Of a stretch of DNA of 64,000 bases, positions 43,910 through 60,000 are shown one piece after another. The stretch is from NCBI RefSeq assembly GCF_024223415.1, contig NZ_CP100500.1; one strand, given 5' to 3'. Source of the DNA: Escherichia coli. GTDB lineage: Bacteria; Pseudomonadota; Gammaproteobacteria; Enterobacterales; Enterobacteriaceae. Each line of letters starts with the position of its first letter. The stretch's first letter is position 1. The translations under genes were made by a program, and so were the position numbers. The notes beneath the pieces were generated by a model. It had not been told where the DNA came from and searched no databases. It saw only the letters and a program-made list of their open reading frames with translations.

Positions 43910-44581
43910 ATGCGCGTACTGGTTGTTGAAGACAATGCGTTGTTACGTCACCACCTTAAAGTTCAGATTCAGGATGCTGGTCATCAGGTCGATGACGCAG
44001 AAGATGCCAAAGAAGCCGATTATTATCTCAATGAACATTTACCGGATATTGCGATTGTCGATCTCGGATTGCCAGACGAGGACGGTCTGTCACTGATTCG
44101 CCGCTGGCGTAGCAATGATGTTTCACTGCCGATTCTGGTATTAACCGCCCGTGAAAGCTGGCAGGACAAAGTCGAAGTATTAAGTGCTGGTGCTGATGAT
44201 TACGTGACTAAACCATTTCATATTGAAGAGGTGATGGCGCGAATGCAGGCATTAATGCGGCGTAATAGCGGTCTGGCTTCACAGGTCATTTCGCTACCAC
44301 CGTTTCAGGTTGATCTCTCTCGCCGTGAATTATCTATTAATGACGAAGTGATCAAACTGACCGCGTTCGAATACACCATTATGGAAACGTTGATACGCAA
44401 TAATGGCAAAGTGGTGAGCAAAGATTCGTTAATGCTCCAACTCTATCCGGATGCGGAGCTGCGGGAAAGCCATACCATTGATGTACTGATGGGACGTCTG
44501 CGCAAAAAAATTCAGGCACAATATCCGCAAGAAGTGATTACTACCGTTCGCGGCCAGGGCTATTTGTTCGAATTGCGCTGA
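43910..44581 (+). CDS. phoP: Response regulator PhoP
   Basis: 223-aa OmpR-family regulator [40 protein letters not shown]... Confidence 0.97.
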
Positions 44582-46041
44582 TGAAAAAATTACTGCGTCT
44601 TTTTTTCCCGCTCTCGCTGCGGGTACGTTTTCTGTTGGCAACGGCAGCGGTAGTACTGGTGCTTTCGCTTGCCTACGGAATGGTCGCGCTGATCGGTTAT
44701 AGCGTCAGTTTCGATAAAACTACGTTTCGGCTGTTACGTGGCGAGAGCAATCTGTTCTATACCCTTGCGAAGTGGGAAAACAATAAGTTGCATGTCGAGT
44801 TACCCGAAAATATCGACAAGCAAAGCCCCACCATGACGCTAATTTATGATGAGAACGGGCAGCTTTTATGGGCGCAACGTGACGTGCCCTGGCTGATGAA
44901 GATGATCCAGCCTGACTGGCTGAAATCGAATGGTTTTCATGAAATTGAAGCGGATGTTAACGATACCAGCCTCTTGCTGAGTGGAGATCATTCAATACAG
45001 CAACAGTTGCAGGAAGTGCGGGAAGATGATGACGACGCGGAGATGACCCACTCGGTGGCGGTAAACGTCTACCCGGCAACATCGCGGATGCCAAAGTTAA
45101 CCATTGTGGTGGTGGATACCATTCCGGTGGAGCTAAAAAGTTCCTATATGGTCTGGAGCTGGTTTATCTATGTGCTCTCAGCCAATCTGCTGTTAGTGAT
45201 CCCGCTGCTGTGGGTCGCCGCCTGGTGGAGTTTACGCCCCATCGAAGCCCTGGCAAAAGAAGTCCGCGAACTGGAAGAACATAACCGCGAATTGCTCAAT
45301 CCAGCCACAACGCGAGAACTGACCAGTCTGGTACGAAACCTGAACCGATTGTTAAAAAGCGAACGCGAACGTTACGACAAATACCGTACAACGCTCACCG
45401 ACCTGACCCATAGTCTGAAAACGCCACTGGCGGTGCTGCAAAGTACGCTGCGTTCTCTGCGTAGTGAAAAGATGAGCGTCAGTGATGCTGAACCGGTAAT
45501 GCTGGAGCAAATCAGCCGCATTTCACAGCAAATTGGCTACTACCTGCATCGTGCCAGTATGCGCGGCGGGACATTGCTCAGCCGCGAGCTGCATCCGGTC
45601 GCCCCACTGCTGGACAATCTCACCTCGGCGCTGAACAAAGTGTATCAACGCAAAGGGGTCAATATCTCTCTCGATATTTCGCCAGAGATCAGCTTTGTCG
45701 GTGAGCAGAACGATTTTGTCGAGGTGATGGGCAATGTGCTGGATAATGCCTGTAAATATTGCCTCGAGTTTGTCGAAATTTCTGCAAGGCAAACCGACGA
45801 GCATCTCTATATTGTGGTCGAGGATGATGGACCCGGTATTCCATTAAGCAAGCGAGAGGTCATTTTCGACCGTGGTCAACGGGTTGATACTTTACGCCCT
45901 GGGCAAGGTGTGGGGCTGGCGGTAGCCCGCGAAATCACCGAGCAATATGAGGGTAAAATCGTCGCCGGAGAGAGCATGCTGGGCGGTGCGCGGATGGAGG
46001 TGATTTTTGGTCGCCAGCATTCTGCGCCGAAAGATGAATAA
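44581..46041 (+). CDS. phoQ: Sensor histidine kinase PhoQ
   Basis: 486-aa ORF overlapping the phoP stop; two TM segments, periplasmic sensor, HAMP and HisKA/HATPase domains. Confidence 0.97.
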
Positions 46042-46121: not shown

Positions 46122-46147
46122 AATTAACTACACCATTAACTACACCG
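46122..46147. repeat. attL core: 26-bp direct repeat AATTAACTACACCATTAACTACACCG
   Basis: Identical to 61252-61277; internally two tandem ATTAACTACACC 12-mers. About 50 bp beyond each copy are imperfectly similar. Confidence 0.8.
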
Positions 46148-46987
46148 TTCGGCGCACTGTATGAAACAACGTGGAACAAATAGGCACAAGAAATATAAAG
46201 GCGGGTAATTTTAAGGGGGCGTTGCTGTCGATATGGGGATCCACATAACGGGGCTACCTGGCTTTTTTTCCGGTTAAATGTCAATCAGGCTGGTGGGCTT
46301 TACCTGTTCGGTAGGTGTTATGATTATCGTAATACCTTTCCCCCAATGGGGTAAAAGCATCAACCGTAACGAAAGTCGTTATGGTTGCCACCGATACTCC
46401 AAATTTGGGTATCACGAGTAAGCCCCAAAATCTGGGTGTTACTCTTACTACCCAAACTACGGGTAGTTTCCGTAGTTTCATGGTCGAGTTGCAGATCTGC
46501 AACTCCCCCATCAACCACAGGCGAATTTCCGCCTTCGGTCATTCCTTAATCATCTGCGTAATCATAATGATTATTCAGCCAGCTCAATTTTGAGCTTTGC
46601 TTTAAGTTCAGCGAGTTACCGCGCCGACTTCCTCAAATTGAGGTTTCCGAAAATATCAGTGGGTTAGCGATTAAGCAGATGGATAATTAACCTGCGAAAA
46701 TTTCGCAGGTTACATCAGCGACGTAATTCTCGCTGTTCCTGCCCGGAGGTGTCGACGAATTTCGTCGGAACCTAAGCCTGCCGGGAAGTCCGTACGTTAA
46801 ACGTACGGAGTTAATTCGACATCACACACTACGTTGTCAATTTGCAAAGGAGGGGCGGAAATCACCATACCTGCCACCCTGTCATACAGAAAGGGATTAC
46901 GATAATCGTAACAGGATACAACGCCGCCTGTAATCGTAACCAATTGATTTTTATGATGACGCAAATCTGCGTTATCAGTCCTCAAAG
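46148..46987. other. 840-bp non-coding arm of the island, rich in hairpins and short repeats
   Basis: No convincing ORF. Contains palindromes CCAAATTTGG, GTTGCAGATCTGCAAC, AACCTGCGAAAATTTCGCAGGTT, CGACGAATTTCGTCG, CCGTACGTTAAACGTACGG and TTACGATAATCGTAA, plus three ATCGTAA motifs. Confidence 0.4.
46163..46189 (+). repeat. Phased heptamer array 1 (GAAACAA, GGAACAA, GGCACAA at exact 10-bp spacing)
   Basis: Read directly; lies just inside attL. Confidence 0.7.
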
Positions 46988-47278
46988 TTACCGCCGCAAC
47001 CGTTCCGGCTTCTTCCACTGATAAGTGTTTTTCGCGCTCTCCTGATACATCGCCACGCGTCGACGGTATGCCAGCAACTCTAGTACTCTGATTCGTATGT
47101 CGCGCATATCCACGCCGTTAAGCTCAATACCGTCACGGCGCATCACCTCCGCCACAACACGCACATAATTTTCGGCGGTCACGCTGTCCGGCTGCGTGGC
47201 CTGTTCGTCATGCTGCTGGCTGATTCCGGTAACGCGGCGGATTAATCCCAGTAGTTCGGCTTCGCTCATTCTCGTCAT
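46988..47278 (-). CDS. Hypothetical protein (96 aa), last gene of the packaging operon
   Basis: ORF whose start overlaps the terL stop; no recognisable motif. Confidence 0.6.
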   Translation of the reverse strand: MTRMSEAELLGLIRRVTGISQQHDEQATQPDSVTAENYVRVVAEVMRRDGIELNGVDMRDIRIRVLELLAYRRRVAMYQESAKNTYQWKKPERLRR

Positions 47279-48936
47279 ACCCCATCAAACGCCGCAAGCC
47301 GCTCTTTGTGGCTGTCGCTCATATCGAATGCAAATTCCTCATGCTCTGCCTGGAATGTGCCAAACGCCATCAGCGCCGCAACGCTCGGGTCTATCTTGTT
47401 GGATGATTTTTTCTTGTTCGGCTTGATATTGGCGTTCGCGTCACTCTGCATCACAACATTACTCATTGACCAGGCCAGCACCGGATCACCACGATGCACA
47501 ATCACCTTCCGGTTAACAAAAACTTCGAACGATTTCGCCGCCGGACTGAAACGAAGGTATGTTTGCGGGAACGGCTCCACCTCAAATCCTGCGCCCTGTA
47601 GCTGCGTCATCAGGTGCGTGGCGTTCCATGTATCGAAGCCCACCAGCCGGATATTAAAATTTTCCGCGTCCTTCATGATGTCATCCCTGATACGGTCGTA
47701 ATCAATACAGTCGCCTGGCGTTGTGCGTATCCAGCCCGATTTTGCCCACTGGCGATAGATGGCGCGGTTTTTATTGGCGGGATTCTGTAGCTGCTGCTCC
47801 GGCAGATAATGACGGGAAACCAGCATGATGGTTTTACCAACCGGAAAGGCATAACACACGCTTGAAATATCATTTGTTGATGATAAATCCAGCCCCGCAT
47901 AGCACTCCTGCCCGTGTAAATCTTCCTCCGTGAACGTTCCGGCACACTCAGCCCATGCACCGTTACCCATCCACGGCGTAGCCCCCTGACACCAGATATT
48001 AAAGCGCTTTGTCATCATCTCCACCCACTGCGACGGAATACCCCGCGCTTTCTGGATGGTTGAGGCAAGTTTTTCACGATCGACGGAAACATCGATATTG
48101 GGATTCGCCTTTATCCACATCGCCGGATCGTCAACCTCGCTTTCATCATCCAGCTCGTAAATCATCACGAACATGGATTCATTAACCTCTTCACCATCCA
48201 GTATCTGACAGCAATAATCATAGTGCTGCTTACAGGCAGAAATAACGTTGCTTCCCGATGTGGTAATGGCGAATAACAGCCCGTCAGGACGCGCACCCAT
48301 CCCAAGTTCAAGCGCGGAATATACGCCGTTATCGGGGTGTAAATGGTATTCATCCACAATGGCAAGACTCGGGTTTGTCCCCTCAATGGTCGCCGCCTTT
48401 GCCGCCAGTGGCTTTAACAGGCTGTTGGTTTTCGGGTGTATCACCTTGTGCGCCTGAATATTTACCCGCTTTCGTAACGGTCGGGATAAAAGGCACATCT
48501 GACGCGCATCATCAAACACGATCCGCGCCTGATCACGACTCACGGCGGCGGTGTAAATATCCTGCTGCCCGTTTTCCATAACCAGAAACCAGTTAGCCAG
48601 GATAGCGGCGACCGTGGATTTGGCATTTTTTCGCGGTACTTCAATGAATGCGCTGGTGTATTTGCGCCGTCCGGTGGACTTAACCTTAAAGCCCAGGATG
48701 CACGCAAAGGCGAACTGCTGCCACGGCTCCAGTTCAATGGGGCTACCGCGCATTGCACCTTTTACGTGCGGGCACACCCTGGAAAAGGCAATAAACCGCT
48801 CCACGACCTCCGGATCGAACGTGTAAAGGGGGTTTTCAAGGTCAGAAAAATACCGTTTAACAGCCTGTTTCAGTCGTTTACAGGCCGTAATTTTGCCGTT
48901 TTTTACGCCTTCTGCGTACTCATGCCAGGCGGTCAA
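47275..48936 (-). CDS. Terminase large subunit
   Basis: 553-aa ORF with ATPase N-terminus and nuclease C-terminus typical of Terminase_1 family TerL; overlaps terS. Confidence 0.9.
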   Translation of the reverse strand: MTAWHEYAEGVKNGKITACKRLKQAVKRYFSDLENPLYTFDPEVVERFIAFSRVCPHVKGAMRGSPIELEPWQQFAFACILGFKVKSTGRRKYTSAFIEVPRKNAKSTVAAILANWFLVMENGQQDIYTAAVSRDQARIVFDDARQMCLLSRPLRKRVNIQAHKVIHPKTNSLLKPLAAKAATIEGTNPSLAIVDEYHLHPDNGVYSALELGMGARPDGLLFAITTSGSNVISACKQHYDYCCQILDGEEVNESMFVMIYELDDESEVDDPAMWIKANPNIDVSVDREKLASTIQKARGIPSQWVEMMTKRFNIWCQGATPWMGNGAWAECAGTFTEEDLHGQECYAGLDLSSTNDISSVCYAFPVGKTIMLVSRHYLPEQQLQNPANKNRAIYRQWAKSGWIRTTPGDCIDYDRIRDDIMKDAENFNIRLVGFDTWNATHLMTQLQGAGFEVEPFPQTYLRFSPAAKSFEVFVNRKVIVHRGDPVLAWSMSNVVMQSDANANIKPNKKKSSNKIDPSVAALMAFGTFQAEHEEFAFDMSDSHKERLAAFDGV

Positions 48937-49321
48937 GCTCGTCCTCTTCCTCTGTTTCCGGTGGATTTCTGCGTCGGCTTACCGGGTCAAAACCCAGCAA
49001 AGAAGCCATTTTGATCATTATTCTTTCTGCGTCAGCCTTTGCGCTCAGGGCGGGGTTTCTGCTCTCGCTGCCCTGACTGTTAACAATGCTGAACCCGCGC
49101 GTCGCAAGGTCTTCGACGGCTTTGCGGTATAGGGAGTAGTTAACGCAATACAGCTCAAGATTGCTCCAGTCGGCGGGGGTAAGGTCTTCCCGCCCGGAAA
49201 GCTGGCGCGATTTTTCCTTCCATTGCCTGACGGCAATTTCATCCAGGTAAGCGGGGGCTTTTGGTGGTCTTGCCATGTTCTTTTTTCGCCCAATTATTTT
49301 CAAAAAAATTCCCGTGCACAA
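48920..49321 (-). CDS. Terminase small subunit (P27 family)
   Basis: 133-aa ORF MARPPKAPAYLDEIAVRQWKEKSRQLSGREDLTPADWSNLELYCVNYSLYRKA... resembles P27-family TerS. Confidence 0.8.
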   Translation of the reverse strand: MCTGIFLKIIGRKKNMARPPKAPAYLDEIAVRQWKEKSRQLSGREDLTPADWSNLELYCVNYSLYRKAVEDLATRGFSIVNSQGSESRNPALSAKADAERIMIKMASLLGFDPVSRRRNPPETEEEDELDRLA

Positions 49322-49565
49322 AAATTTGAGCAGGCGGTCGGTTCTGGGCAGGGTCGGGTTCGTCCTGAAAACTCCCCCCCACCCCGTCCGGCTGCCTCAT
49401 CAGCGATTGCGAAAACATTCCATGACCTCGCGGTCACGGTCGGTTAATCGCTTCGCTGTGGTGCGTTTTGTGCGCCCTGTCCTGTTGGCTTTGTGCTCTG
49501 TCTCCTGTGTCTTCCATGTGTCACGCTGCCTTATCAGTCCACGTATCAGCCTGGTTTGCTCCTGT
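49322..49565. other. Predicted cos/packaging-site region between HNH and terS
   Basis: 244-bp GC-rich non-coding gap containing CCCCCCCACCCC (49373-49384). In HK97-type genomes cos lies between the HNH endonuclease gene and terS. Confidence 0.35.
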
Positions 49566-50006
49566 TCAGTCATCATCGCCATACATCCAGTCGTTACGGT
49601 GTGCCGCCCGTTCTTCCTGCTCGCGATACATGCCCGCTTTACGGTTTGCTTTCGTGGCTGGATCTTCCCGTGTGGTCTTACGGTTGTGGCACGTCTGGCA
49701 CAATGCCTGGTGATTCCACTCAGGCCAGAAGAGAACATCATTACCGCCATCGATGGGGATAATGTGATCCACCACCACGGCGGGCGTGTATATTCCTTTT
49801 TCCAGGCAATGCGCACATAACGGGTTTTTACTCAGGTACATAGCGCGGTATTTCTCCCACTGCCTCGTATACCCTCGCTCCCTGCTGCTGCCTCTCCGGC
49901 TGTCCTGCTGCTGGCGTGCGCTGCGTCTGTGCTCCTCACACTTCCCGGACTTCACGCGCCTGTTGCAGCCTGGTTGTGTGCATCGTCTCAATGGTTGCCA
50001 CGGCAT
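49566..50006 (-). CDS. HNH endonuclease (terminase-associated)
   Basis: 146-aa ORF with Cys-rich zinc finger and HNH motif (CAHC...DHIIP...NHQALCQTCHNRK). Confidence 0.85.
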   Translation of the reverse strand: MPWQPLRRCTQPGCNRRVKSGKCEEHRRSARQQQDSRRGSSRERGYTRQWEKYRAMYLSKNPLCAHCLEKGIYTPAVVVDHIIPIDGGNDVLFWPEWNHQALCQTCHNRKTTREDPATKANRKAGMYREQEERAAHRNDWMYGDDD

Positions 50007-50302
50007 CAGTACACCCCCACATCACGATAAACCGACCAGAGCGCGGAAATCGTCAGGGGAATTTCTTTTGTATCGGTATCGCCAAGCGTTGTCCGGTACT
50101 CGTACAGTTGCGAGATGTACATCAGGCAACCAATTTTTATTGCAGGGGTAAATTCCAGGCCGTCATCAAAACGCCTGCCAATATGCTTCTGGCATACCTC
50201 CAGCGCCGCGCTTATGTATGCCTGAATCAGTGTGTCTTCTGTGTTACCATCTATGCGGCAGTGAAGTTTGGCCTCTTCCAGGGTTATTTTTTCTGCTGTC
50301 AT
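50006..50302 (-). CDS. Head-tail connector protein (phage gp6-like)
   Basis: 98-aa ORF MTAEKITLEEAKLHCRIDGNTEDTLIQAYISAALEVCQKHIGRRF... typical of the gp6-like connector family. Confidence 0.7.
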   Translation of the reverse strand: MTAEKITLEEAKLHCRIDGNTEDTLIQAYISAALEVCQKHIGRRFDDGLEFTPAIKIGCLMYISQLYEYRTTLGDTDTKEIPLTISALWSVYRDVGVY

Positions 50303-50637
50303 TTTTCTGTACCCACCTTTGCCAGAATTTCCAGCCGGGTTCTTTTCGCATCAGGTAAGGGGATCCCGATGATATTAAGCGTGCTCCCGGCAAAAGCGCC
50401 GGTAAGCACTTTCAGGCGACTGGCGGCGGATATGTCGCCACGATAGCGAACCCATACCCGAATCGTTGCAGGTGCGGTTTCTGCGCCTGCGGTCAGTAAT
50501 TCCCGTCCGCTGATCCCCTTGACCTCTGCCCAGATGGTTTCCCCTTCCGTCCATATCTGCTGGATCGCACCTGACGGCAGGCGCTGTGTGGTAAATGTCA
50601 TAATCGTCACCCGGTCCCGCATCTTTCCGGCTATCAT
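50299..50637 (-). CDS. Head closure / head-tail adaptor protein
   Basis: 112-aa ORF between portal and gp6-like gene with overlapping start and stop. Confidence 0.65.
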   Translation of the reverse strand: MIAGKMRDRVTIMTFTTQRLPSGAIQQIWTEGETIWAEVKGISGRELLTAGAETAPATIRVWVRYRGDISAASRLKVLTGAFAGSTLNIIGIPLPDAKRTRLEILAKVGTEK

Positions 50638-51851
50638 TCGTCACCGCCCTTACTGTTCTTGCTGATTGTCACTTCCTGCTTCCATGCCTGGCTGAACTCG
50701 TCGCCACCTTCACGCGGCGGCATTCCCTCACGCTCACGGGCTTCGTTCGGATTGATGATCCCGTTCTTAATCCCTTTCTCATACGTGGCGTAACGTTCGG
50801 TAGGGGTGGCGCGTAATAAATCGGCTGAATCAAACTCAACCAGATAACGGGTACCAGGTACGGGAGAAGCCACCAGCAAAGCAGCCTTGATTTGCTGTTC
50901 GAAGTTCGCCAGCCACGGGCGCATTGTCATGGTCAGAAACGCGCGGCTTGCCTCACTGAAATTGCTGTAGGTGCTGTTGCTGTATTCCTGCAAAAAAATC
51001 GGCGAGACGTTGAACATTCGGGCGATGTCTTCAATGGTAAAGCGACGGGAGGCCAGCCATTCAGCATCCTGATTACTCATGCCCAGCTGCTGATAGCTCA
51101 TACCCCCTTCAAGGATGGGCGTTTTTCCGGCGTTTCTGGCCCCTTTGTAGCGTTCCAGTGCGGCTAATGCCTGTTTGCCCTTCACGCCGTCCAGCCATTC
51201 GCCTGACGTGATAACCCCTGCCGCCATCATGCCATCACGCATCACGCTCGCGCCGTGGCGTTGTTGGGCCAGCCCAAGCCCCAGCGATTCGCGGCAGATG
51301 GTTACAGGTGAGCGCCCCATAAAGCCGTCATCCGTGGAGTAACGAAGGTGGAGAACCTCCCACGGTAAATAGTTGCGGGTGTTTCCGGTGTAGGCGTCAG
51401 TGATGCAGTAGCGCCAGTTATGCTCACCTGTCTGCTCCACGTTCACCGACTGCGGCGGGTAAGGATGTAAAGCCACCGGAAAACCATCACGCCCCCACTG
51501 AATAACCGCATAAGCATTACCGTTTAACAGGCAGTGGCGGATCATCATTCGCTTAAACTGGTAGGGGGTTTGCCATGCGTTCGGGCGCTCGTTGAGGATG
51601 TGATCGACCGGATGAGAATCAAGCCACTCGCGGGCCTCCTTCCCCTTCTCATTGCGTACCAGGTACAGGTAACACGGCATGGTAGCCACCGCCTCAGAGA
51701 TGACCGTCACGGCGTTCATGACGGCGGGCAGTGATTCCGCTGTCCCCGATGATACGTACTCACCCGCCCCCGTGTTCGATGTGCCCGCCAGCGCCATAAA
51801 TTCATCAAGCGTCATGCTGCGCTGCTCTTTTTTTCTTCTGAAAAGCCACAT
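50634..51851 (-). CDS. Portal protein (HK97 family)
   Basis: 405-aa ORF; alternative start MTLDEFMALAG at 51815. Confidence 0.85.
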   Translation of the reverse strand: MWLFRRKKEQRSMTLDEFMALAGTSNTGAGEYVSSGTAESLPAVMNAVTVISEAVATMPCYLYLVRNEKGKEAREWLDSHPVDHILNERPNAWQTPYQFKRMMIRHCLLNGNAYAVIQWGRDGFPVALHPYPPQSVNVEQTGEHNWRYCITDAYTGNTRNYLPWEVLHLRYSTDDGFMGRSPVTICRESLGLGLAQQRHGASVMRDGMMAAGVITSGEWLDGVKGKQALAALERYKGARNAGKTPILEGGMSYQQLGMSNQDAEWLASRRFTIEDIARMFNVSPIFLQEYSNSTYSNFSEASRAFLTMTMRPWLANFEQQIKAALLVASPVPGTRYLVEFDSADLLRATPTERYATYEKGIKNGIINPNEAREREGMPPREGGDEFSQAWKQEVTISKNSKGGDE

Positions 51852-51852
51852 A

Positions 51853-52425
51853 TCACACCCCCGCTAAATCCACCCACCAGCGGCGATTATCCGCACGCGG
51901 CATTTTTTCGGGGTGCTGCTCATACAGGGAACGGCGGGCCAGCTCCACGCCGGAATCGGGGTAAGCCGGTACCGATGTAACGGTAATTTCGTACAGTTCC
52001 GCCACCAGCACGGTACGAACGCATGGATCTGTTGTGGTATCCCATACATCCTTACGGGAGCGAAAGCCAAAGCTCATGCCGGATATATCACCGCGTTTAA
52101 CCAGTTCGATAACGTCGCGCCCTGTACTGGTATCCGGTGGGGTCAGTTCAAAGCGTAACCCTGTTTCGTCCTCTTCCAGTTTCAGCGTGCCGGAACGGGT
52201 GCGCCCCAGTAACATGCTGTGGTCATGCTCATACAGGCCGCGAACGTCATTACCCGCCGCAAGCCATTCAGTAAACGCCCCCCGCTGGAATTTTTCGTAA
52301 AACTCACCCCATAACAGTTCTGAAAGCTTATCCCAGCGAACAACGTAGCCCGTCAGCGTACCGGCTCCGCTCGTGGTGATTTCCGATGACCGGATTTCCA
52401 TACTCTTCATAATTTTTTCACCCAT
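51853..52425 (-). CDS. Prohead protease (HK97 family)
   Basis: 190-aa ORF between capsid and portal genes; resembles HK97-type prohead protease. Confidence 0.8.
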   Translation of the reverse strand: MGEKIMKSMEIRSSEITTSGAGTLTGYVVRWDKLSELLWGEFYEKFQRGAFTEWLAAGNDVRGLYEHDHSMLLGRTRSGTLKLEEDETGLRFELTPPDTSTGRDVIELVKRGDISGMSFGFRSRKDVWDTTTDPCVRTVLVAELYEITVTSVPAYPDSGVELARRSLYEQHPEKMPRADNRRWWVDLAGV

Positions 52426-52464
52426 AAAACACTAAAGGGGCTTTTAAGCCCCTTCTGTATGCTG

Positions 52465-53622
52465 TTAATCGTCGTCCTGTGGCAGTTCCAGAATCTTGAT
52501 CGCGTTCGAATCCACCACGCCACCGCCTAAATATTTCTGCGTGAAAATTTTGATGAAGCCCGGCTCTGTGATGTTGTCCGGTCTGGTGCGAACACCTGTT
52601 TCGTGATCAACAATGTAGTAACCGCGTTTGAAGTCACCCAGGGCAATAACGTTATCAGGCATAAACTCCAGATATTCGACCGGAAGGCCCAGCAACGTAT
52701 CAGGATCACCCGCCTGTAAACGGTCGCGCCAGATGTAATCACCGTTCGCGTTCTTCACCTTCTGAAGTTTTGCCGCCGTTGTGGAGTTAACCACCCATAC
52801 CGCGTTCTTGCGGTATTTTTTACGCAATGCAAATTTCAGGTCGATCAGCGGGTCCGCAGATGTCCACGCCAGACCGTGAGCGGGCTTGATAACCTGCAAC
52901 GTTCCGAAGTCGCGTTCTTTGTCGCTCTTCTCTGCACGGGGGACGGATAAAAAGCCTTTTGCTTTTTTGTCACCGTCGCCCACAACCAGATCGCTTTCTT
53001 CGGTTTCCGTGAAGGTGTCGCCAATCTCGGCCGTCAGCCATGAAAGGATGTCCACATCGGAAAAATCCACGATTTCCTGTGTGGTGCGCGGGTACGCATA
53101 GACCGGATACAGCTTAATGCTCACCTCGTTAATCTGCGGGGTGCTGGTCTGTTCGCGTGCCTTACCCTCTTCACCGTGGTTAACGGTCGCACCGCCAGCG
53201 GAAACAAGCTGCTTAAACTCGTTGCTGCTGATTTTCTTCACGGTACAGATGCGGCGCATGGTGGATTCATCCGCCAGCATTCGCATGATTTCGGTGTTCA
53301 GTTCGGGGATAACGGTATAACCACCATCAGCGGGAACGCCTGTACTTAATGCGCGGGTTTCACCTGTCAGAATGTAGTTGCGTAGTTCTGCGGGGTCAGT
53401 GGTCTGACTGCTTTTACCTGGCTTGCTGCGCTCTTCGTCTGCAATGGCTTCAAGGCGGGAAATGTCTTTATCGAGGGATTCAGCTTTAGCGCGTAATTCA
53501 TCAAATTTTGCGCCCTCAGCATCGTTAAGACTGCGGTTTTCTTTTTCCGCGTTCTCCAGCATGTCGCGCATCTGATTTTTAATGGCGGTTTTCTGCTGGC
53601 GTAATTCGATTATTCTCGGCAT
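52465..53622 (-). CDS. Major capsid protein (HK97 fold)
   Basis: 385-aa product from MPRIIELRQQKTAIKNQMRDMLENAEK (ATG at 53622): N-terminal delta/scaffold-like coiled coil then capsid domain. The track ORF extends to a TTG at 53667. Confidence 0.85.
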   Translation of the reverse strand: MPRIIELRQQKTAIKNQMRDMLENAEKENRSLNDAEGAKFDELRAKAESLDKDISRLEAIADEERSKPGKSSQTTDPAELRNYILTGETRALSTGVPADGGYTVIPELNTEIMRMLADESTMRRICTVKKISSNEFKQLVSAGGATVNHGEEGKAREQTSTPQINEVSIKLYPVYAYPRTTQEIVDFSDVDILSWLTAEIGDTFTETEESDLVVGDGDKKAKGFLSVPRAEKSDKERDFGTLQVIKPAHGLAWTSADPLIDLKFALRKKYRKNAVWVVNSTTAAKLQKVKNANGDYIWRDRLQAGDPDTLLGLPVEYLEFMPDNVIALGDFKRGYYIVDHETGVRTRPDNITEPGFIKIFTQKYLGGGVVDSNAIKILELPQDDD

Positions 53623-53836
53623 AAAAAAAAGTCCTGGGGTTAAGTAAGGAACTCCAGGACGCGGCAAAAACTCAACCGTTTTTCATAAGGAAATCAGCAA
53701 TCGCACCGATCGTTTTCCCGCCTGGTAATGAATATTGGCGAGCACATTAACAGGCGGGAAAGTGGCCCCAGCGTCCTGGCACCACGGGCGAGAATAATCA
53801 TGATTCAGTTCGAGTAAAATATGCCGATCCGCTCAG

Positions 53837-53863
53837 TGAACAACCTGGAACAACCACGAACAA
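53837..53863 (+). repeat. Phased heptamer array 2 (TGAACAA, GGAACAA, CGAACAA at exact 10-bp spacing)
   Basis: Read directly; lies in the divergent region between the capsid gene and the moron. Confidence 0.7.
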
Positions 53864-53937
53864 ATAATTTACAAAACCTGAAAAAATAAATAAACTGTTC
53901 CGTACATTTTCTGCTCGTTAATCAGGAGGAACGAACT

Positions 53938-54411
53938 ATGTCAGAAAATGAACTGAAAAAAGCAATGTTCATTCAGCAACGATTGCAGATTCTCCACCTT
54001 GGTAAACACTATGATGAGTTCAGTGATTCTTACGTGTATGCCTGGGAGGCAGATGTTTATCCTTTCTTGCAGGATGGCGACGGAAGTATTCCTGCTCGCC
54101 CACATGAAATTTACGAAGAGTTTTTCGGCACATCTAAAAACAAAGCCAAAAAGATATACGATCGTCTGTGCAAAGCCTGGCACGACCAGGAGGCACTCAC
54201 ATTCTATAAACTAGAAAGTGAATATGGTGTAACAAGTAGCAGCATGCACAGATGGACACGAAGTGATTTACTTCACATCTGCCGCTATCTGTATCTTGAG
54301 GGGTGTTTCGATAAAGATTTCTGGGAAACATTACTGGAAAACGGAAAATGCCCAAGCGAAGCACTTTACCTTAGCGATGAATTTAATCGCGATACAGAGA
54401 TCGACTTCTAA
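53938..54411 (+). CDS. Hypothetical protein (157 aa), moron cargo gene
   Basis: Only + strand gene in the island interior; strong SD (CAGGAGGAACGAACTATG); own hairpin terminator; visibly lower GC than flanking genes; acidic C-terminus; no recognisable motif. Confidence 0.7.
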   Translation: MSENELKKAMFIQQRLQILHLGKHYDEFSDSYVYAWEADVYPFLQDGDGSIPARPHEIYEEFFGTSKNKAKKIYDRLCKAWHDQEALTFYKLESEYGVTSSSMHRWTRSDLLHICRYLYLEGCFDKDFWETLLENGKCPSEALYLSDEFNRDTEIDF

Positions 54412-54416
54412 AAAAA

Positions 54417-54446
54417 TGGCCTGGAAAATACCAGGCCATTATTATT
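54417..54446. terminator. Bidirectional terminator after the moron
   Basis: TGGCCTGG-aaaata-CCAGGCCA hairpin flanked by an A-run and a T-rich tract. Confidence 0.8.
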
Positions 54447-54734
54447 CTACCGTTTCACGGGATCACGCATTCTGCGCCTTATTTTCCACAGATATTCGAT
54501 CATCGCTTCCACCTGCTCACGGTTGGTTGCGAAAATTTCCCCGGTCAGTGAGCTACGCAGAAAATCATGATGATCCACAAAAAATAACGCATCGGAAGAA
54601 AGCAGCCGGAGATATTTTTTTGCTGTCGTGCTTTCCAGATCATCAAAATCATGAAGCTTTTTATGTTGCTGGACTTCTTCAAATGTCACTGGCATGTTTC
54701 CTCCTGCTACCACGATACCAGAAACAGTTAACAA
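54447..54734 (-). CDS. Hypothetical protein (95 aa)
   Basis: ORF at the distal end of the leftward replication operon; no motif recognised. Confidence 0.55.
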   Translation of the reverse strand: MLTVSGIVVAGGNMPVTFEEVQQHKKLHDFDDLESTTAKKYLRLLSSDALFFVDHHDFLRSSLTGEIFATNREQVEAMIEYLWKIRRRMRDPVKR

Positions 54735-54740
54735 CCGTTA

Positions 54741-55022
54741 TCAATTATCCCCTTTTTTAGGGTAGTTCCTGAACATCTCACCGCCAGGCTTCTGTAAGCC
54801 CATCCCGGTATGTGTGCGGTTTATGGCCTCTTTCAGTATTCCGAAATTATCCGGTATGACTGGTGGGCGTGCTGCCTTACGGATACATTCCGCGCGACGC
54901 TTTGCCACTTGTTCGCGCTCCTTGTCAGTGCTCACCAGCCACATAACATCAGCCCATCGCGCGGCCGCCCTCCGGTAAAATCCTTTCGCCTCCAGTTCCT
55001 CCGCTATCCGGTCATGTACCAT
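54741..55022 (-). CDS. Hypothetical protein (93 aa)
   Basis: Start placed at ATG 55022, 10 nt after the ssb stop (the track ORF extends into ssb); MVHDRIAEELEAKGFYRRAAARWADVMWLVSTDKEREQVAKRRAECIRKA... Possible small regulator; unverified. Confidence 0.5.
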   Translation of the reverse strand: MVHDRIAEELEAKGFYRRAAARWADVMWLVSTDKEREQVAKRRAECIRKAARPPVIPDNFGILKEAINRTHTGMGLQKPGGEMFRNYPKKGDN

Positions 55023-55032
55023 CGTCACCCCC

Positions 55033-55443
55033 TCAGAACGGAATATCATCACCGTAAGGGTCATCGCCTCCCGCTGGTGGCTGATTACCCTGTGTGCCTG
55101 TGGTTTTGCGTCTGTTCCCACCAGGACGTGCCGCACGCGCACTGATTACGCTGTCTGCGATAACCTGCCAGCCCTGCCGCGTTTCCCCGTTCTGTCCGGT
55201 CCACTGGCTGACCTGCATCGTGCCGGATACGCTGGCAACGTCGCCTTTTTGATGTTTAGCCAGAAAGTCGGCCTGTTTGCCAAATGCGATGACCGATAAC
55301 CATAACGTCGCCTGTCCGTCCTGTGCCTGGCCGCATGGTAAAGATACCGCCATACGCGCCAGCGTCATCGGTGTACCCTTACTGGTCTGTTTTACCTGCG
55401 GGTCGTCCACCAGCCGCCCGTAAGCTGCAATTTGTGCTGTCAT
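55033..55443 (-). CDS. ssb: Single-stranded DNA-binding protein
   Basis: 136-aa ORF with OB-fold-like core resembling E. coli SSB and the C-terminal acidic tail ...DDPYGDDIPF. Confidence 0.85.
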   Translation of the reverse strand: MTAQIAAYGRLVDDPQVKQTSKGTPMTLARMAVSLPCGQAQDGQATLWLSVIAFGKQADFLAKHQKGDVASVSGTMQVSQWTGQNGETRQGWQVIADSVISARAARPGGNRRKTTGTQGNQPPAGGDDPYGDDIPF

Positions 55444-55452
55444 ATTGCCACC

Positions 55453-55758
55453 TCAGTGAAGCGATCCGGCGTTGTTCTTTTTCATCTCTTCCATCATTTT
55501 TTCAGTGAGCATTACGCACTGAAAACCCATGTTTTTGATGTCTACGGGTTTCATGCCTTTGTCAGTGGATATCACAGGCAGAATATCCTGATACACATCG
55601 CCGCCAGGGTAACTAAGCACACAAAGCGCCCATGATGCCACGGGTGAGGATCCTTGGTCTGTTTCAACCCACCAGCCTGGTGTAGCTGCGCTTATTTGCA
55701 GAATCGTGATCCGTCCGTTGTGCTTGTAAAATTTTTCACCACATTTTGGTTCGCTCAT
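55453..55758 (-). CDS. Hypothetical protein (101 aa)
   Basis: ORF between ssb and the origin. Confidence 0.55.
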   Translation of the reverse strand: MSEPKCGEKFYKHNGRITILQISAATPGWWVETDQGSSPVASWALCVLSYPGGDVYQDILPVISTDKGMKPVDIKNMGFQCVMLTEKMMEEMKKNNAGSLH

Positions 55759-56036
55759 GCTTCCACCTCTCCGGTTTTAACGTTGATGGTTGTCACCTGT
55801 TCCGCTCCGGCAATCTCCCGTTCTGTCAGCGTGGCAAAATTTGCCGCTACCGTTGTCATGAATGCGCTTATCAGTTCGGGATGTGCTTTCGCGTATCCTT
55901 CTCCCGCGTGGCGGTCTATCGTTCTGATTGCCACCTTTAAGGCGTGCTCTGTCATGTCTAACGCTTTATATTTTGGCGCTGTCTTATCTCTGGTTTTTCT
56001 GTTCATTCCCCACCACTCCCCACTTTTGCTCCCCAC
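55755..56036 (-). CDS. Hypothetical protein (about 83-93 aa)
   Basis: ORF immediately downstream of the iteron array; true start probably the internal MNRKTRDK (56006) because the upstream codons lie within the iterons. Confidence 0.45.
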   Translation of the reverse strand: MGSKSGEWWGMNRKTRDKTAPKYKALDMTEHALKVAIRTIDRHAGEGYAKAHPELISAFMTTVAANFATLTEREIAGAEQVTTINVKTGEVEA

Positions 56037-56221
56037 TTTTTAAATTCCCCACTTGCTCCCCACCTCGTTTTTTGAGTGAATCTAATGCTTTGTTTTTCAT
56101 TGCGTTTTTTGCTCCCCACTTTTTTGGATGTATACAGGTGGGAAAGTGGGGAATTATGTTTCAATTTTGTTAAATTCCCCACTCTCCCCACTTTTACTAC
56201 CCACTTTTTACAGTGGGTAAA
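56007..56221. repeat. Iteron array, putative replication origin of the island
   Basis: At least 9 direct copies of (C/T)TCCCCAC(TTTT) at irregular spacing plus 3 inverted copies (AGTGGGGAA, GGTGGGAAA, CAGTGGGTAAA) with A/T-rich spacers, directly 3' of the rep gene. Confidence 0.8.
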
Positions 56222-57614
56222 CATCATCCCCATCGACACAAATCACGCCGTCTTTTTCCAGCTTGTACAGCCAGCGCCGGAAGTGCTTCATCTCATACCC
56301 CAGCTTTTTCATATCGTCGCGGAGAAGGGCGATAGTGCATGGCTCTTTGTGTGCCGTCCGCGTTCTGATGCACTGCCATAGCGCGGCGTGATTCTCCGAT
56401 TTGTTGCCTGCTTCCTCGATGCGCTCCAGTTCAGCAGGGGCGCGGGGAACGTCAATCACCACCATAGACACAATCTCTTCGCCATCTGTATCGGTGAACA
56501 CCTCCACGCTTTTAAGGTCGTATGCACTCTCTTTTGGCTCCTCTGCGTCCTTCATCTTCGTACACGCCGCCACCAGTGCTGTAACGTCTGAATTTTCCCG
56601 GCTGATTCGGTACTCTGCATCAAGCGCGGCACGGAATGCGCTGGAACCACGCGCCCCCTTTGTTTCATCCTTGCCGGAATGGTGAACCACCAGCACCGTG
56701 GCCCCTGTGGCCTGCTTTATCGCGTCACACCCCTGGATAAATGCGCCCATATCACGGGAATCATTTTCATCATTCCCACCAAAGCAACGGGCCAGTGTGT
56801 CGATCACAATCAGCCGCACATTTTCGCCCGTTCTGCTCTTAACAAGTCCGGCAGTCCTGATAACCTGCTCCACATAGTCAGGCGATGCAGGGAAAACAGG
56901 CGCGTTAATGATGCACAAATCTGTAACCACCTTGTCGTGGGTTATCTCCCACGCCTTAACGCGGCGTTTTACGCCCATGCTGCCTTCACCAGCGATATAG
57001 ATAACCGCCCCCTTACTTACCCTGCGGCCTCCCCATGCCATACCTGTGGCAACATGGCACGACCAGGAAATGGCGAGGAACGATTTATAAGAACCGCTGG
57101 CCCCGTAGGTGCTGCATAATGACTCAGCCGGAATAAGCCCCTTAATTACGTAGCTTTGCTGCGCGTCGAATCCCTCAGAACCCCATGAGATGGGAAGCGT
57201 GATTTTTCGCTTTCCGCCATTCATGACCAGGCTTTCCCCTCTCTCCCATGTTTCCCGTAGTCGTGGTAGCTGGTCGCTCCAGTCCTCCAGCAGTTCGAAA
57301 TTTTCAGAAAGTAGCCGCGCCTCCTGGACTCCGGCGATCGCCAGTTTTGTGGCAATGGTCAGCATCTGCATATCGTCCAGGTTTCCGGCGCGTATGACCT
57401 TTGCCCTGTATCGTCCTTCATCAACAATCTGTAAGTTGTCCAGTTCGCTTAACTGATAACGGCCCAGGTAAACCGGAGGGATGGGATCGCCTGCTTTTTT
57501 GGCCTGTGCAATCATGTAATGTTCTGCAAAGGAGTGAGCATTATCACCCGCAAAAATAACCGCCTCAGTGTGTTTATCTTTCGGTAACAGTTTTACGTTC
57601 GGTGCAAGTTTCAT
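56208..57614 (-). CDS. Replication initiator / RepA-like P-loop ATPase (AAA_25-type helicase domain)
   Basis: 468-aa ORF with central P-loop-like segment (YGASGSYKS...LIVIDTLARCF...VLVVHHSGKDETKG), the pattern of RepA/DnaB-like helicases; N-terminal 150 aa unassigned. Confidence 0.7.
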   Translation of the reverse strand: MKLAPNVKLLPKDKHTEAVIFAGDNAHSFAEHYMIAQAKKAGDPIPPVYLGRYQLSELDNLQIVDEGRYRAKVIRAGNLDDMQMLTIATKLAIAGVQEARLLSENFELLEDWSDQLPRLRETWERGESLVMNGGKRKITLPISWGSEGFDAQQSYVIKGLIPAESLCSTYGASGSYKSFLAISWSCHVATGMAWGGRRVSKGAVIYIAGEGSMGVKRRVKAWEITHDKVVTDLCIINAPVFPASPDYVEQVIRTAGLVKSRTGENVRLIVIDTLARCFGGNDENDSRDMGAFIQGCDAIKQATGATVLVVHHSGKDETKGARGSSAFRAALDAEYRISRENSDVTALVAACTKMKDAEEPKESAYDLKSVEVFTDTDGEEIVSMVVIDVPRAPAELERIEEAGNKSENHAALWQCIRTRTAHKEPCTIALLRDDMKKLGYEMKHFRRWLYKLEKDGVICVDGDDVYPL

Positions 57615-57898
57615 TTCTTACCCCCTGCGACCAGCATTTCACGGATTTTGCGGATATAACTTGCAGCACGTTTCTGATTAACGGCTTTACGATGGCCCAC
57701 CAGCGTGAAATCACGCCGGAACTGATAAACAGGCATAACGCAGTCATATTCGTAGCCTTCACGGCGGTAAGTTACGCGACGTTCCTCCACGCTTTTAATT
57801 GTTACCGTGCCGCCGTAGTTATCTTTGAAAATATCGCCGGGGCGGATTTCAGGCCGAGCGGGGCCGCTGGCAGTAAAGCCAGAATATTTAAGTTTCAT
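57611..57898 (-). CDS. Hypothetical protein (95 aa), translationally coupled to rep
   Basis: Stop overlaps the rep start. Confidence 0.55.
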   Translation of the reverse strand: MKLKYSGFTASGPARPEIRPGDIFKDNYGGTVTIKSVEERRVTYRREGYEYDCVMPVYQFRRDFTLVGHRKAVNQKRAASYIRKIREMLVAGGKK

Positions 57899-57903
57899 TA
57901 TTT

Positions 57904-58137
57904 TTATTCTCCGGTGTGCTGTTCTTTATATCTGTCGTGCAATAGGTCTATTTCCTGCAACTCTGTTATTACAGGTTCAAGGAGAGTTATCAGAGATTTA
58001 ATAATCCGCGCATTCTTTACATCACGCTCATTATCGCCAAATGTATCTGGATACATTTGCAATATTTCGTACATACCTTCAGCGTAAGCAATGGCACTAA
58101 ATGCGCGGTCTATTGTTTCGAGGTAAATATCACGCAT
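57904..58137 (-). CDS. Hypothetical protein (77 aa)
   Basis: Tightly packed with flanking small ORFs on the same strand. Confidence 0.5.
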   Translation of the reverse strand: MRDIYLETIDRAFSAIAYAEGMYEILQMYPDTFGDNERDVKNARIIKSLITLLEPVITELQEIDLLHDRYKEQHTGE

Positions 58138-58138
58138 A

Positions 58139-58387
58139 TTAATCCCCGTCCGTCGTTTTTCTTAAAATAACCTCTGTCACGAAATCAGCATAATCGGCGG
58201 CGATATTCAGTACATCAAGCCCCGTTGATTTATATTCTCTCGTGGAAAGTAAGAAAAAAGCCGCTCTAATAAGCTCTGGCATTGACGAAAGCGCATCAGC
58301 CGCATCATCAGGAACGCCGGAAAATTCCTGTTTCAGGGAATTAAAACGATCATCACGCATAACCCCCCCCATTTTCACAATCAGCAA
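58139..58387 (-). CDS. Hypothetical protein (about 73-82 aa)
   Basis: Tightly packed small ORF; start may be the internal Met at 58360. Confidence 0.45.
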   Translation of the reverse strand: MLIVKMGGVMRDDRFNSLKQEFSGVPDDAADALSSMPELIRAAFFLLSTREYKSTGLDVLNIAADYADFVTEVILRKTTDGD

Positions 58388-58634
58388 TCAGGATGGCTTT
58401 GGCCTCATTCAGTGCCATATCAGCGGTAAGCTGTGCGTAGGCCAGCAAATGCGGGATTATTGCCCCTGTATATTCCGTCTCTCTGGTAATGTGTTTTTCT
58501 GCGGTTGCTGCCGTGCATGAAATATCAATCAGCGCGTGCATCAGCGTTTTGATGGCTTCGGCGGCTGCGTCCGGACGGGTGTTATTGCACATGGCACACC
58601 TCCTGACGGATACGGGCGGCGAATACAGCGACAC
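58353..58634 (-). CDS. Hypothetical protein (up to 93 aa), first gene of the leftward early operon
   Basis: ORF immediately downstream of the divergent promoter region; start uncertain. Confidence 0.4.
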   Translation of the reverse strand: MSLYSPPVSVRRCAMCNNTRPDAAAEAIKTLMHALIDISCTAATAEKHITRETEYTGAIIPHLLAYAQLTADMALNEAKAILIADCENGGGYA

Positions 58635-58872
58635 AACCGGACGGGCAACGGTTACGCGCTTCGCGTTCCGTCCAGGCGGTCACGTGGATAATTTGAGATT
58701 CTCCGGCACTCAGTGCCAGAAAACGCCACACAAAGGCGGTTTGTGTGTGCGCTAGTCGTGGGGTATGCTGTGTTCCAGCCATAATCGTTACTCCTGTTAA
58801 CGGTTTGGTTAGACGCCCTGCATGTGTTACAGCACTGCGGGGCGTTGTCTTTTTAACGGCTTTCGTGATAGG

Positions 58873-58914
58873 GTGTACACCTATCAAGCAAAAAAATAAC
58901 GCTATAGGTGTACA
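58873..58914. promoter_or_regulatory. Palindromic operator overlapping the RHH gene start
   Basis: Perfect 12-bp inverted repeat GTGTACACCTAT (58873-58884) and ATAGGTGTACAC (58903-58914), each half containing the self-complementary GTGTACAC; ends 1 bp before the RHH ATG. Confidence 0.7.
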
Positions 58915-58915
58915 C

Positions 58916-59110
58916 ATGTCAACAGTTATTAAGCGAGATAAAAAACCAAAGGGAACAGGAAAAGCCCCCCCATTCCATATGCGAATAGCTCCAGAACTGA
59001 AAGAGCAGTTTGATAATGAGGCCAGCAATGATGGGGTAAGCCTAGCCAACTGGCTTAAAGAGTTGGGACGCAGTGAACTGAAGCGGCGCGGTATAGAACC
59101 CAAAGGTTGA
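58916..59110 (+). CDS. Ribbon-helix-helix (Arc/MetJ-type) DNA-binding protein, candidate island repressor
   Basis: 64-aa product MSTVIKRDKKPKGTGKAPPFHMRIAPELKEQFDNEASNDGVSLANWLKELGRSELKRRGIEPKG fits a beta-strand plus two helices RHH fold; divergent from the early operon. The track ORF 58745..59110 is an upstream extension. Confidence 0.6.
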   Translation: MSTVIKRDKKPKGTGKAPPFHMRIAPELKEQFDNEASNDGVSLANWLKELGRSELKRRGIEPKG

Positions 59111-59267
59111 TAGCCCACCAGCAAGCCAGGACACTGATCACATTGGCCACCGTGACAGGTGGCCTTTTCTTTGCCCGTTATCCGGCAATTGTGGCGCTTC
59201 GCCACACGGTTGATATAATCCCACTGCTCATATTCATTTTTTGCGCAGCAGGTAAATTGTTCAGAAA

Positions 59268-59296
59268 GGCGGCTCCTTATCGGGGCCGCTTTTTTT
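59268..59296 (+). terminator. Rho-independent terminator downstream of the RHH gene
   Basis: GGCGGCTCC-ttatc-GGGGCCGC hairpin (one G-U wobble) followed by TTTTTTT. Confidence 0.7.
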
Positions 59297-59437
59297 ATGC
59301 CTGAAAAACCGCGATTTTGTTGTTTTTCAGTTTCACAAGGCCGAACGAAGCCCCGCCCCTGTTCCGGCGTATATCCAGTCTTCATGGTTAAATCTCTGTA
59401 TTAGTGGATGGGTGGCGGCTGTGTGCCGCCAGTCTTT

Positions 59438-59626
59438 TTAGTGAACTGCCTCGCAGCTTTCCTTCCATGCCAGAACTTCGGATAAAGACCAGCCAACGGA
59501 ACGACCGCCCAGCTTACGCCGTGATGGGAATTGTCCGGCCTTTTCCAGGCGGTAGCGGCATGAGCGGCTAAGCCCTGTTAGCTTTTCGCATTCTTTTTCA
59601 CGTATAAAACGATCAGTGCTTAACAC
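59438..59626 (-). CDS. alpA: AlpA-family transcriptional regulator
   Basis: 62-aa ORF MLSTDRFIREKECEKLTGLSRSCRYRLEKAGQFPSRRKLGGRSVGWSLSEVLAWKE with the AlpA/MerR-like HTH pattern; sits next to the integrase as in P4-like elements and PICIs. Confidence 0.8.
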   Translation of the reverse strand: MLSTDRFIREKECEKLTGLSRSCRYRLEKAGQFPSRRKLGGRSVGWSLSEVLAWKESCEAVH

Positions 59627-59908
59627 TATTGCCCCCTTTCGTTTCTTAAAGAGTTATTTCGTGTTCTATTGCGTTGGTATGTGTCTGATTGTGTCAGGGT
59701 GATTCAGAGTTGGCAAATGTTGATGGCGGGTATTTTACAGAAACGGGGTGATTTTAATAAAAAACATTTTAATTCAGTATTATGCAAAGGCATAAAATCT
59801 CGTTTCATGCCTTTTTTCTCACTATTTAAAGCGTTATTCGCTAATGTATAAAAAACCAGTTGAGCATTAAAAATCAGCAACTTATAAATCTGTATATTTT
59901 TTGGCCTC

Positions 59909-59955
59909 TTGTTCGTGGTTGTTTCACGTTGTTGCGTATTGTTGCACGTTGTATC
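59909..59955 (-). repeat. Phased heptamer array 3 (five copies at exact 10-bp spacing, opposite orientation)
   Basis: Plus strand reads TTGTTCG, TTGTTTC, TTGTTGC, TTGTTGC, TTGTATC, the reverse complements of CGAACAA, GAAACAA, GCAACAA, GCAACAA, GATACAA; lies between the int stop and alpA. Confidence 0.7.
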
Positions 59956-60000
59956 TGTGCACTTATCCAGTATGCGCATACTGAAAAAACACGAAAAAAA

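Follow-up and report, generated by a model that had tools for sequence, protein, structure and literature searches.

A putative iteron-type replication origin downstream of the RepA-type helicase gene of an Escherichia coli PICI

Directly downstream of the rep gene of an Escherichia coli island, which by its gene set is a capsid-forming PICI (cf-PICI), there is an array of short repeats (56007-56219, minus strand; delimited by repeat scans and by comparison of relatives) that we regard, with a probability of roughly 85%, as the vegetative replication origin of the island. All positions refer to the window, i.e., the whole stretch of 64,000 nucleotides that was analysed. The original prediction had already proposed an iteron origin of the PICI type, and the layout of the array fits the published definition of PICI origins (PMC6092414, PMC9371898). 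This reading is also backed by repeat positions which are fixed among the relatives, by a repeated word which changes between them and by the covariation of this word with the recognition helix of the replication protein Rep.

The island and its genes

The island spans positions 46122-61277 (~15.16 kb) between phoQ (44581-46041) and a roxA-like ORF (61470-62600) with pepT. It is flanked by a 26-bp direct repeat, AATTAACTACACCATTAACTACACCG, at 46122-46147 and 61252-61277, which likely represents attL and attR. The gene order is int, alpA, icd-like, DUF4222, rep, two small genes, ssb and perC, followed by the genes for capsid, protease, portal, connectors and HNH and by terS and terL; tail or lysis genes are not found in the gene content of the island. 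The gene calls rely on the RefSeq annotation of a 99.4% identical copy in E. coli GF60 and on the matching ORFs of the window. This copy of positions 55400-57700 belongs to an island of the same kind that is inserted in tqsA.

Int and AlpA share 94-100% identity with PICI proteins already known, and the island has the further hallmarks of a PICI, namely int and alpA, a one-directional operon, a size within ~10-18 kb, its own att site and no lysis or tail genes. Since it also carries its own capsid, protease, portal, connectors, HNH, TerS and TerL and no tail module, it is by its gene set a cf-PICI, the type of island for which this gene set has been described and which packages its own DNA with its own TerS, TerL and HNH (bioRxiv 10.1101/2022.09.08.507074). 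A megablast search with positions 55400-57700 against 50,697 phage records gave no match, so that the element is not a catalogued phage. The prototype cf-PICI is EcCIEDL933, and it is for this island only that HK106 is a known helper phage.

According to the gene calls, the gene next to the array codes for a protein of 83 aa (phrog_1231; 55755-56006, minus strand) and starts at the array edge, and the single-strand DNA-binding protein of the replication module is encoded at 55033-55443 (minus strand). The DUF4222 gene (57611-57898, minus strand) overlaps the rep start and is the upstream partner of rep in all relatives.

Within the 267-aa ORF at 58582-59385 (minus strand) the last ~65 residues match Icd-like/repressor families; GF60 and RM10042 have two or three short Icd-like genes at this place. 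Although the GF60 island is otherwise 99% identical, it differs in the regulatory segment that lies between alpA and DUF4222. Between the perC region and the capsid gene we find a 157-aa ORF on the plus strand (53938-54411), without family match and hypothetical in the GF60 annotation, which the island could carry as an accessory or cargo gene. Partial matches to the replication module occur in 1,644 of 5,426 complete E. coli genomes (~30%), at up to 6 places per genome, and most of the 2.3-kb query is carried by 83 complete E. coli genomes only. Few near-full matches among many partial ones are in keeping with extensive mosaicism.

The repeat array downstream of rep

Twelve TCCCCAC-type words lie within positions 56007-56219 of the window, and the predicted count of nine direct and three inverted copies was borne out by reading the sequence and by repeat scans. 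Eight copies on the plus strand are exact (TCCCCAC at 56007, 56017, 56030, 56046, 56057, 56113, 56176 and 56185), and the ninth reads TACCCAC (56198). The copies in the opposite orientation are GTGGGAA (56138-56144), GTGGGGA (56146-56152) and GTGGGTA (56213-56219). On the minus strand, which carries rep and every other gene of the region, the array word is AAAGTGGGGA.

The motif YCCCCAC has 20 matches in the 64-kb window, nine of them in the 185-bp stretch of the array, compared with a mean of 11 matches in dinucleotide shuffles of the whole window. Likewise, seven of the 12 AAGTGGG matches of the window fall in the array, and a search of the rest of the island gave no further AAGTGGG. This enrichment goes far beyond the shuffles and argues against a chance low-complexity repeat. 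A host-initiated origin built from a cluster of DnaA boxes could be suspected from the resemblance of AGTGGGGAA to the DnaA box complement TGTGGATAA, which match at 6 of 9 positions. However, neither a DnaA box (up to one mismatch) nor a GATC or Fis site was found when the array was scanned, with a single IHF-like match containing one mismatch, and in the relatives the words GTGAG and GTGCG are still further from the DnaA box while their positions are kept. We regard a DnaA-box cluster or a chance repeat as effectively refuted.

The origin that we favor, one read by Rep, occupies all 201 bp that separate the rep stop codon (56208-56210) from the ATG of the next gene (56004-56006) and extends 10 nt into the 3' end of rep. 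The claimed overlap with the rep stop is correct: TACCCAC (56198-56204) and GTGGGTA (56213-56219, plus strand, within the last rep codons; found by repeat scan) bracket the stop codon, and an 8-bp inverted repeat (56198-56205 with its copy at 56213-56219) reaches across it.

We name the individual iterons by slot. The left cluster, on the minus strand, consists of the core slots +3 (AAAAGTGGGTA on the rep strand, 56198-56204), which holds the cognate word in 61 of 61 unique relatives, and +16 (AAAAGTGGGGA, 56185-56191), and of the auxiliary slot +25 (GAGAGTGGGGA, 56176-56182), where the word is often absent or non-cognate in relatives. An AT-rich spacer (56153-56175), a candidate unwinding region, separates this cluster from an inverted pair on the plus strand. 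The pair is made up of core slot -61 (GAAAGTGGGGA, 56146-56152; cognate in 58 of 61 relatives) and the degenerate slot -69 (GTGGGAA, 56138-56144), the latter assigned from the sequence and the relatives. The palindrome TGTATACA (56129-56136; TGTATA(C/T)A in E. coli relatives) stands between the inverted pair and core slot +88 (AAAAGTGGGGA, 56113-56119, minus strand; cognate in 58 of 61 relatives). A 49-bp spacer (56064-56112), which is A-rich on the rep strand and a second candidate unwinding region, leads to the right cluster (56007-56063, minus strand) with slots +144 (56057-56063), +155 (56046-56052), +171 (56030-56036, core), +184 (56017-56023, core) and +194 (56007-56013), the last of which shares sequence with the ribosome-binding region of the following gene.

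The spacers are A/T-rich as predicted, with an AT content of 87% (56153-56175) and 67% (56064-56112) versus 49% for the island. In stability they are ~2 SD below the island mean, although they are not its least stable spot and the AT content is higher elsewhere in the island. A scan of the array against Rfam, with E-values up to 1, returned sub-threshold eukaryotic families only.

PICI origins are located immediately 3' of rep and have two iteron sets around an AT-rich region (PMC6092414). Both features are seen here, as the array begins in the last rep codons and has a left set (56176-56204) and a right set (56007-56063), between which lie the two AT-rich stretches together with the central direct and inverted copies.

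The repeats might alternatively be Rep sites that serve mainly control, i.e., autoregulation of the operon, copy-number "handcuffing" or partition, and not firing. The array lies within an operon and the promoter/terminator scan detected neither element in the array or between rep and the 83-aa gene, the copy at slot +194 overlaps a ribosome-binding region, and iteron plasmids use the same sites for initiation and control. Nevertheless, two clusters with AT-rich DNA are the layout of an origin, the homologous position in EcCICFT073 acts as origin in a plasmid-maintenance test (PMC6092414), and a control role would add to initiation and not replace it. Control as the main function appears improbable to us, and we retain the origin reading.

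Several ORFs run over the array (56003-56239 on the minus strand; 55928-56173, 56076-56381 and 55654-56043 on the plus strand). The original prediction took such ORFs to be artefacts of the repeats and our results agree with it. A PHROG search with these ORFs gave no match, they are unannotated in the 99.4% identical RefSeq copy of GF60, and the 78-codon frame over the array is not conserved, being open in just 16 of 63 unique relatives.

Fixed slots and a changing word in the relatives

For the comparison we used the loci of Rep homologues, 80 from IMG/VR and several from assemblies and RefSeq, and a second set of loci collected around a more distant Rep lineage. In every relative an array follows the rep stop in the same register, and in the 61 unique origins the copies occupy the fixed offsets +3, +16, +25, -61, -69, +88, ~144/155, +171, +184 and +194. 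The layout between the clusters is shared as well, with the inverted pair 61/69 adjoining the TGTATA(C/T)A palindrome and an A-rich stretch following the +88 copy. The word itself differs between loci: 50 have AAGTGGG and 30 have AAGTGAG, and Lelliottia and Yokenella carry AAGTGCG. Positions that are kept while the word changes are expected of sites that are read by a co-evolving protein.

The cognate word is found almost always at slots +3, +16, -61, +88, +171 and +184. Non-cognate words are confined to slots +25, -69, 154-155, +184 and +194, so that +184 is the sole core slot at which they occur (3 of 61 origins). Three origins (L058, L064 and L069) are mixed-class or truncated and therefore not every copy need be cognate.

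In the origins of the IMG/VR loci L064, L069 and L060 the left and central slots hold GTGAG words (the Asn444 type, see below), but GTGGGG occupies slots 155, 184 and 194. These origins have the look of recombinants and suggest that non-cognate words are tolerated at the right-hand auxiliary sites.

A different, non-iteron element, (A)AAGCCGCGCCATTACTGG, is located in the middle of the EcCICFT073 origin (L169:10185-10205) and also in the RepA-type origins of Lelliottia and Yokenella (L004 ~3995-4030, L005 ~3995-4025). It is common to these origins despite their differing initiators and iterons and may be a host-factor or priming signal; in the origin of the window it is absent.

The replication protein

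The rep gene (56208-57614, minus strand) codes for a protein of 468 aa with an N-terminal domain (1-125), a linker, a core (~155-390) and a C-terminal winged helix (405-468). The core matches the AAA_25/RepA-helicase family, and the sole solved relative by sequence is RSF1010 RepA (1g8y, E 4e-5). In the fold comparison of the core RSF1010 RepA again appears (TM 0.74), together with T7 gp4 and Twinkle. Rep is an RSF1010-RepA-type (RecA-fold) helicase. A domain search of Rep revealed no recognisable primase domain.

An AlphaFold2 model of Rep, computed from a 70-sequence alignment, reached a pLDDT of 88.6, and the C-terminal domain modelled alone 91.6. The model shows the N-terminal domain (1-125), a disordered linker, the RecA-fold core and a C-terminal domain of three helices and a hairpin, in the order helix 407-421, helix 428-437, helix 445-454 and a beta-hairpin wing. 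A Foldseek search with the C-terminal domain, which is predicted to bind DNA and is encoded by codons 405-468 (56211-56402, minus strand), returned winged-helix DNA-binding domains as every match, among them HrcA, MotA, ArsR, DtxR, Fur, BlaI and LexA (TM 0.6-0.7, probability 0.9-0.99, with the weak E-values that are expected for 73 residues). The recognition helix of this domain would be helix 3 (residues 445-454; 56253-56282, minus strand), of which residue 444 is the N-cap in the model. Rep is thus predicted to combine a helicase core and a winged helix on one polypeptide, the mark of the self-loading initiator-helicase class.

The alleles of Rep are mosaic, with N-terminal, core and C-terminal blocks in different combinations. 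The N-terminal domain (residues 1-126, 57237-57614) belongs to no Pfam family, in the distant relatives L174 and L175 it is replaced by a Zn-ribbon and a Toprim primase, and it may serve as adaptor to a partner from the host or the island.

Residue 444 of Rep and the iteron word

We compared the columns of the Rep alignment with the word class of the respective origin. Among 59 unique Reps a single column has a normalised mutual information of 1.0 to the word class, namely residue 444, which is His in 42 of 42 G-class Reps and Asn in 17 of 17 A-class Reps; the next-best columns score 0.57 and 0.56. At the nucleotide level, the first base of codon 444 (CAC for His in the window, 56283-56285, minus strand) is the only site of rep that is perfectly associated with the iteron class, C (His) going with GTGGG and A (Asn) with GTGAG, so that the two alleles are one nucleotide apart in this codon. 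About 15 polymorphic sites lie between this base and the origin and all score at most 0.5, and therefore simple physical linkage does not explain the pattern. A tree built from the 3'-terminal 270 nt of rep requires five or more changes of the word class, and one built from the whole Rep has nine. In two pairs (L056 and L060; L028 and L029) the C-termini are near-identical and differ by His or Asn, and the origins are of opposite classes.

The association extends to neighboring residues and to more distant lineages. The sixth base of the word tracks Rep residues 441, 442, 445, 446 and 450, which belong to the same helix. Gly, Ser or Ala at position 444 is found with GTGCG, a distant lineage bearing His has again GTGGG, and a homologue fused to a Toprim primase and carrying Asn has AAAAGTGAGGAG in the same layout. 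When the distant homologues were used as a blind test, L175 gave a clean confirmation and L172 and L174 a partial one, and L173 had no clean word. Taken from these sequences, the data suggest a specificity code in which His444 goes with G, Asn with A and Gly, Ser or Ala with C. We see even odds that residue 444 itself sets the iteron word via the fifth base, in which case ~10 iterons would have changed in concert at least five times among E. coli PICIs. The covariation could also be an indirect effect and not a direct base contact.

For an EMSA the original prediction named the N-terminal domain of Rep. This is probably the wrong domain, as the specificity signal is in the C-terminal winged helix. 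Because the word class tracks residue 444, which caps the recognition helix of the winged helix, the reader of the repeats is, judged by this covariation, probably the C-terminal and not the N-terminal domain. We considered the N-terminal domain as specificity determinant and rejected it, since it is common to initiators with unrelated helicase bodies and unrelated iterons and hence cannot set origin specificity; its types are also shuffled relative to the iteron class. A block at residues 409-422 (HAALWQCIRTRTAH versus HTALWGCIRSRTQN) was likewise discarded, as its columns score at most 0.33.

The same analysis bears on the possibility that the array is an operator for another DNA-binding protein of the island, be it the DUF4222 protein, the 83-aa protein, PerC or AlpA. 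Intergenic repeats beside small genes of unknown function would suit such a role, and the N-terminus of the downstream 83-aa protein is partly associated with the iteron class, its best column reaching 0.67. This partial association is, however, attributable to linkage, since the columns physically adjoin the array, and even the best of them have exceptions while the association is perfect for Rep residue 444 only. The DUF4222 protein scores at most 0.32, and no promoter consensus was found in the array scan. We consider an operator for these proteins very unlikely and hold to Rep as the protein for which the sites are made.

A role of the word classes in avoiding incompatibility of co-resident islands is not supported. 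Five source genomes have two or three copies of the replicon, and in three of them the copies are of the same class (2585427729 with L078-L080; 2529293138 with L038, L039 and L047; 2617271340 with L041 and L042). The two remaining genomes combine different classes (L013/L046 and L034/L044).

Comparison with known replicons

The closest described replicon is that of EcCI042, the PICI of E. coli 042. It has a Rep of the same family (a 466-aa helicase of the RepA family that shares the C-terminal motif), the same gene order of DUF4222, rep, array, 83-aa gene, ssb and perC, and the same iteron slots after the stop codon. EcCI042 has Asn444 and AAAGTGAGG iterons, whereas the window has His444 and AAAGTGGGGA. 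The islands differ in type as well: EcCI042 is a classical PICI, which lacks a terminase and has a capsid and decoration module of the lambda type, whereas the island of the window is capsid-forming. The EcCI042 protein (CBG34588) was listed as one of four "Pri-Rep" variants by Fillol-Salom et al. 2018 (PMC6092414 Fig. S10), and the replicon family is therefore already part of the PICI catalogue. In the literature on the EcCI042-type replicon we found no functional test and no account of its helicase class, reading domain or word classes.

This comparison is also relevant to the idea that the array is a packaging signal (cos or pac) for the small terminase of the island. Small terminases often bind repeats. 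The idea is also favored by the packaging of cf-PICI DNA, for which these islands use a TerS, TerL and HNH of their own (bioRxiv 10.1101/2022.09.08.507074). Yet terS is 7 kb away from the array, the word co-varies with Rep, and classical PICIs devoid of terminase genes (EcCI042, L003, L006 and L007) have this type of array behind the same rep. A packaging signal thus seems extremely unlikely, and an origin for Rep remains our interpretation.

EcCICFT073 shares the island backbone and the att site beside phoQ with the window (Int 94% and AlpA 95% identical), and its origin too is directly 3' of the initiator gene and has direct and inverted iterons around AT-rich DNA. Its rep-ori segment kept a plasmid at the restrictive temperature and deletion of the ori reduced maintenance (PMC6092414). 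The initiator of 584 aa occupies the same slot, and its first 131 residues (L169:8242-8634) are 46% identical to the N-terminal domain of the window Rep. Its body, however, consists of D5_N, DUF5906 (SF3-type) and a C-terminal Pox_D5 instead of a RecA-fold RepA helicase plus winged helix, and its iteron word, TGTCTACC / GGTAGA(C/T)A, differs from that of the window. This D5/SF3-type protein is the only functionally tested initiator of an E. coli PICI.

The logic of the window replicon resembles that of the SaPI Rep-ori modules (SaPI1, SaPIbov1 and SaPI5), in which a self-loading initiator-helicase reads the iterons via its C-terminal winged helix, and 6-12 short iterons, some of them inverted, closely follow rep and are divided equally between the two sides of an AT-rich centre (PMC9371898). 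In contrast to the window Rep, the SaPI Reps are AAA+ type helicases of 3'-5' polarity, their primase is either separate or fused and their host is Gram-positive. They are unrelated to it in sequence, and the window Rep with its RecA-fold core shows no homology to this AAA+ clade; it is analogous to SaPI Rep and not a member of the family.

With RSF1010 (IncQ) the window shares the helicase core, RepA being the closest solved relative of Rep, and an origin of the iteron type. In RSF1010, the iterons are read by a separate protein, RepC, and RepB' primes, whereas in the window Rep helicase and DNA-binding domain form one protein, with no evident primase. The alpha protein of P4, a satellite of E. 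coli phages, is a multidomain initiator as well and reads short repeats through an origin-binding winged helix at its C-terminus, but it comprises a primase and an SF3 helicase and needs two separate repeat regions, ori and crr. The island of the window has a single cluster and no AAGTGGG elsewhere. P4 has been compared with PICIs before (PMC6092414). Finally, the replicon does not conform to classical iteron plasmids, which have a Rep_3 (WH1-WH2) initiator, DnaA boxes and host DnaB recruitment: the array contains no DnaA box within one mismatch, and the initiator is a helicase and not Rep_3.

Proposed mechanism and implications

For Rep binding, melting, self-loading and replication itself we infer from the rep-ori modules of EcCICFT073 and the SaPIs, which have been tested. 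By analogy, Rep would be a hexameric RSF1010-RepA-type (RecA-fold, SF4-like) helicase that brings its own C-terminal winged helix, and this domain would bind the AAAGTGGGGA iterons (AAAGTGGGG sites), the fifth base of GTGGG most likely being read by His444, the N-cap residue of the recognition helix. The core sites +3, +16, -61, +88, +171 and +184 flank the two AT-rich stretches, and Rep assembled on them may melt the AT-rich DNA and load itself as the replicative helicase. The SSB of the island and the priming and polymerase machinery of the host would then copy the excised circle.

A full-text literature search for the iteron words retrieved unrelated primers only, and in the accessible texts of the cf-PICI literature (including bioRxiv 10.1101/2022.09.08.507074) origin and iterons are not mentioned. 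The general picture of PICI replication is unchanged by our results, as an origin is an expected feature of such islands. The origin does define, however, the replicon of E. coli satellites that are very common as a class, with thousands of Rep sequences in the protein clusters, and knowing the origin and the reading domain leads to a minimal rep-ori cassette with which these islands could be studied or engineered. The so-called "allelic variants" of PICI initiators would be swaps of whole modules of helicase and DNA-binding domain on a shared N-terminal domain. A testable prediction of the specificity code is a switch by H444N combined with a change of GGG to GAG, from which orthogonal replicons could be obtained. 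If true, the RecA-fold helicases with a winged helix would form an orthogonal and re-targetable set of self-loading initiators, a class distinct from the SF3 and AAA+ initiators studied in SaPIs, P4 and EcCICFT073.
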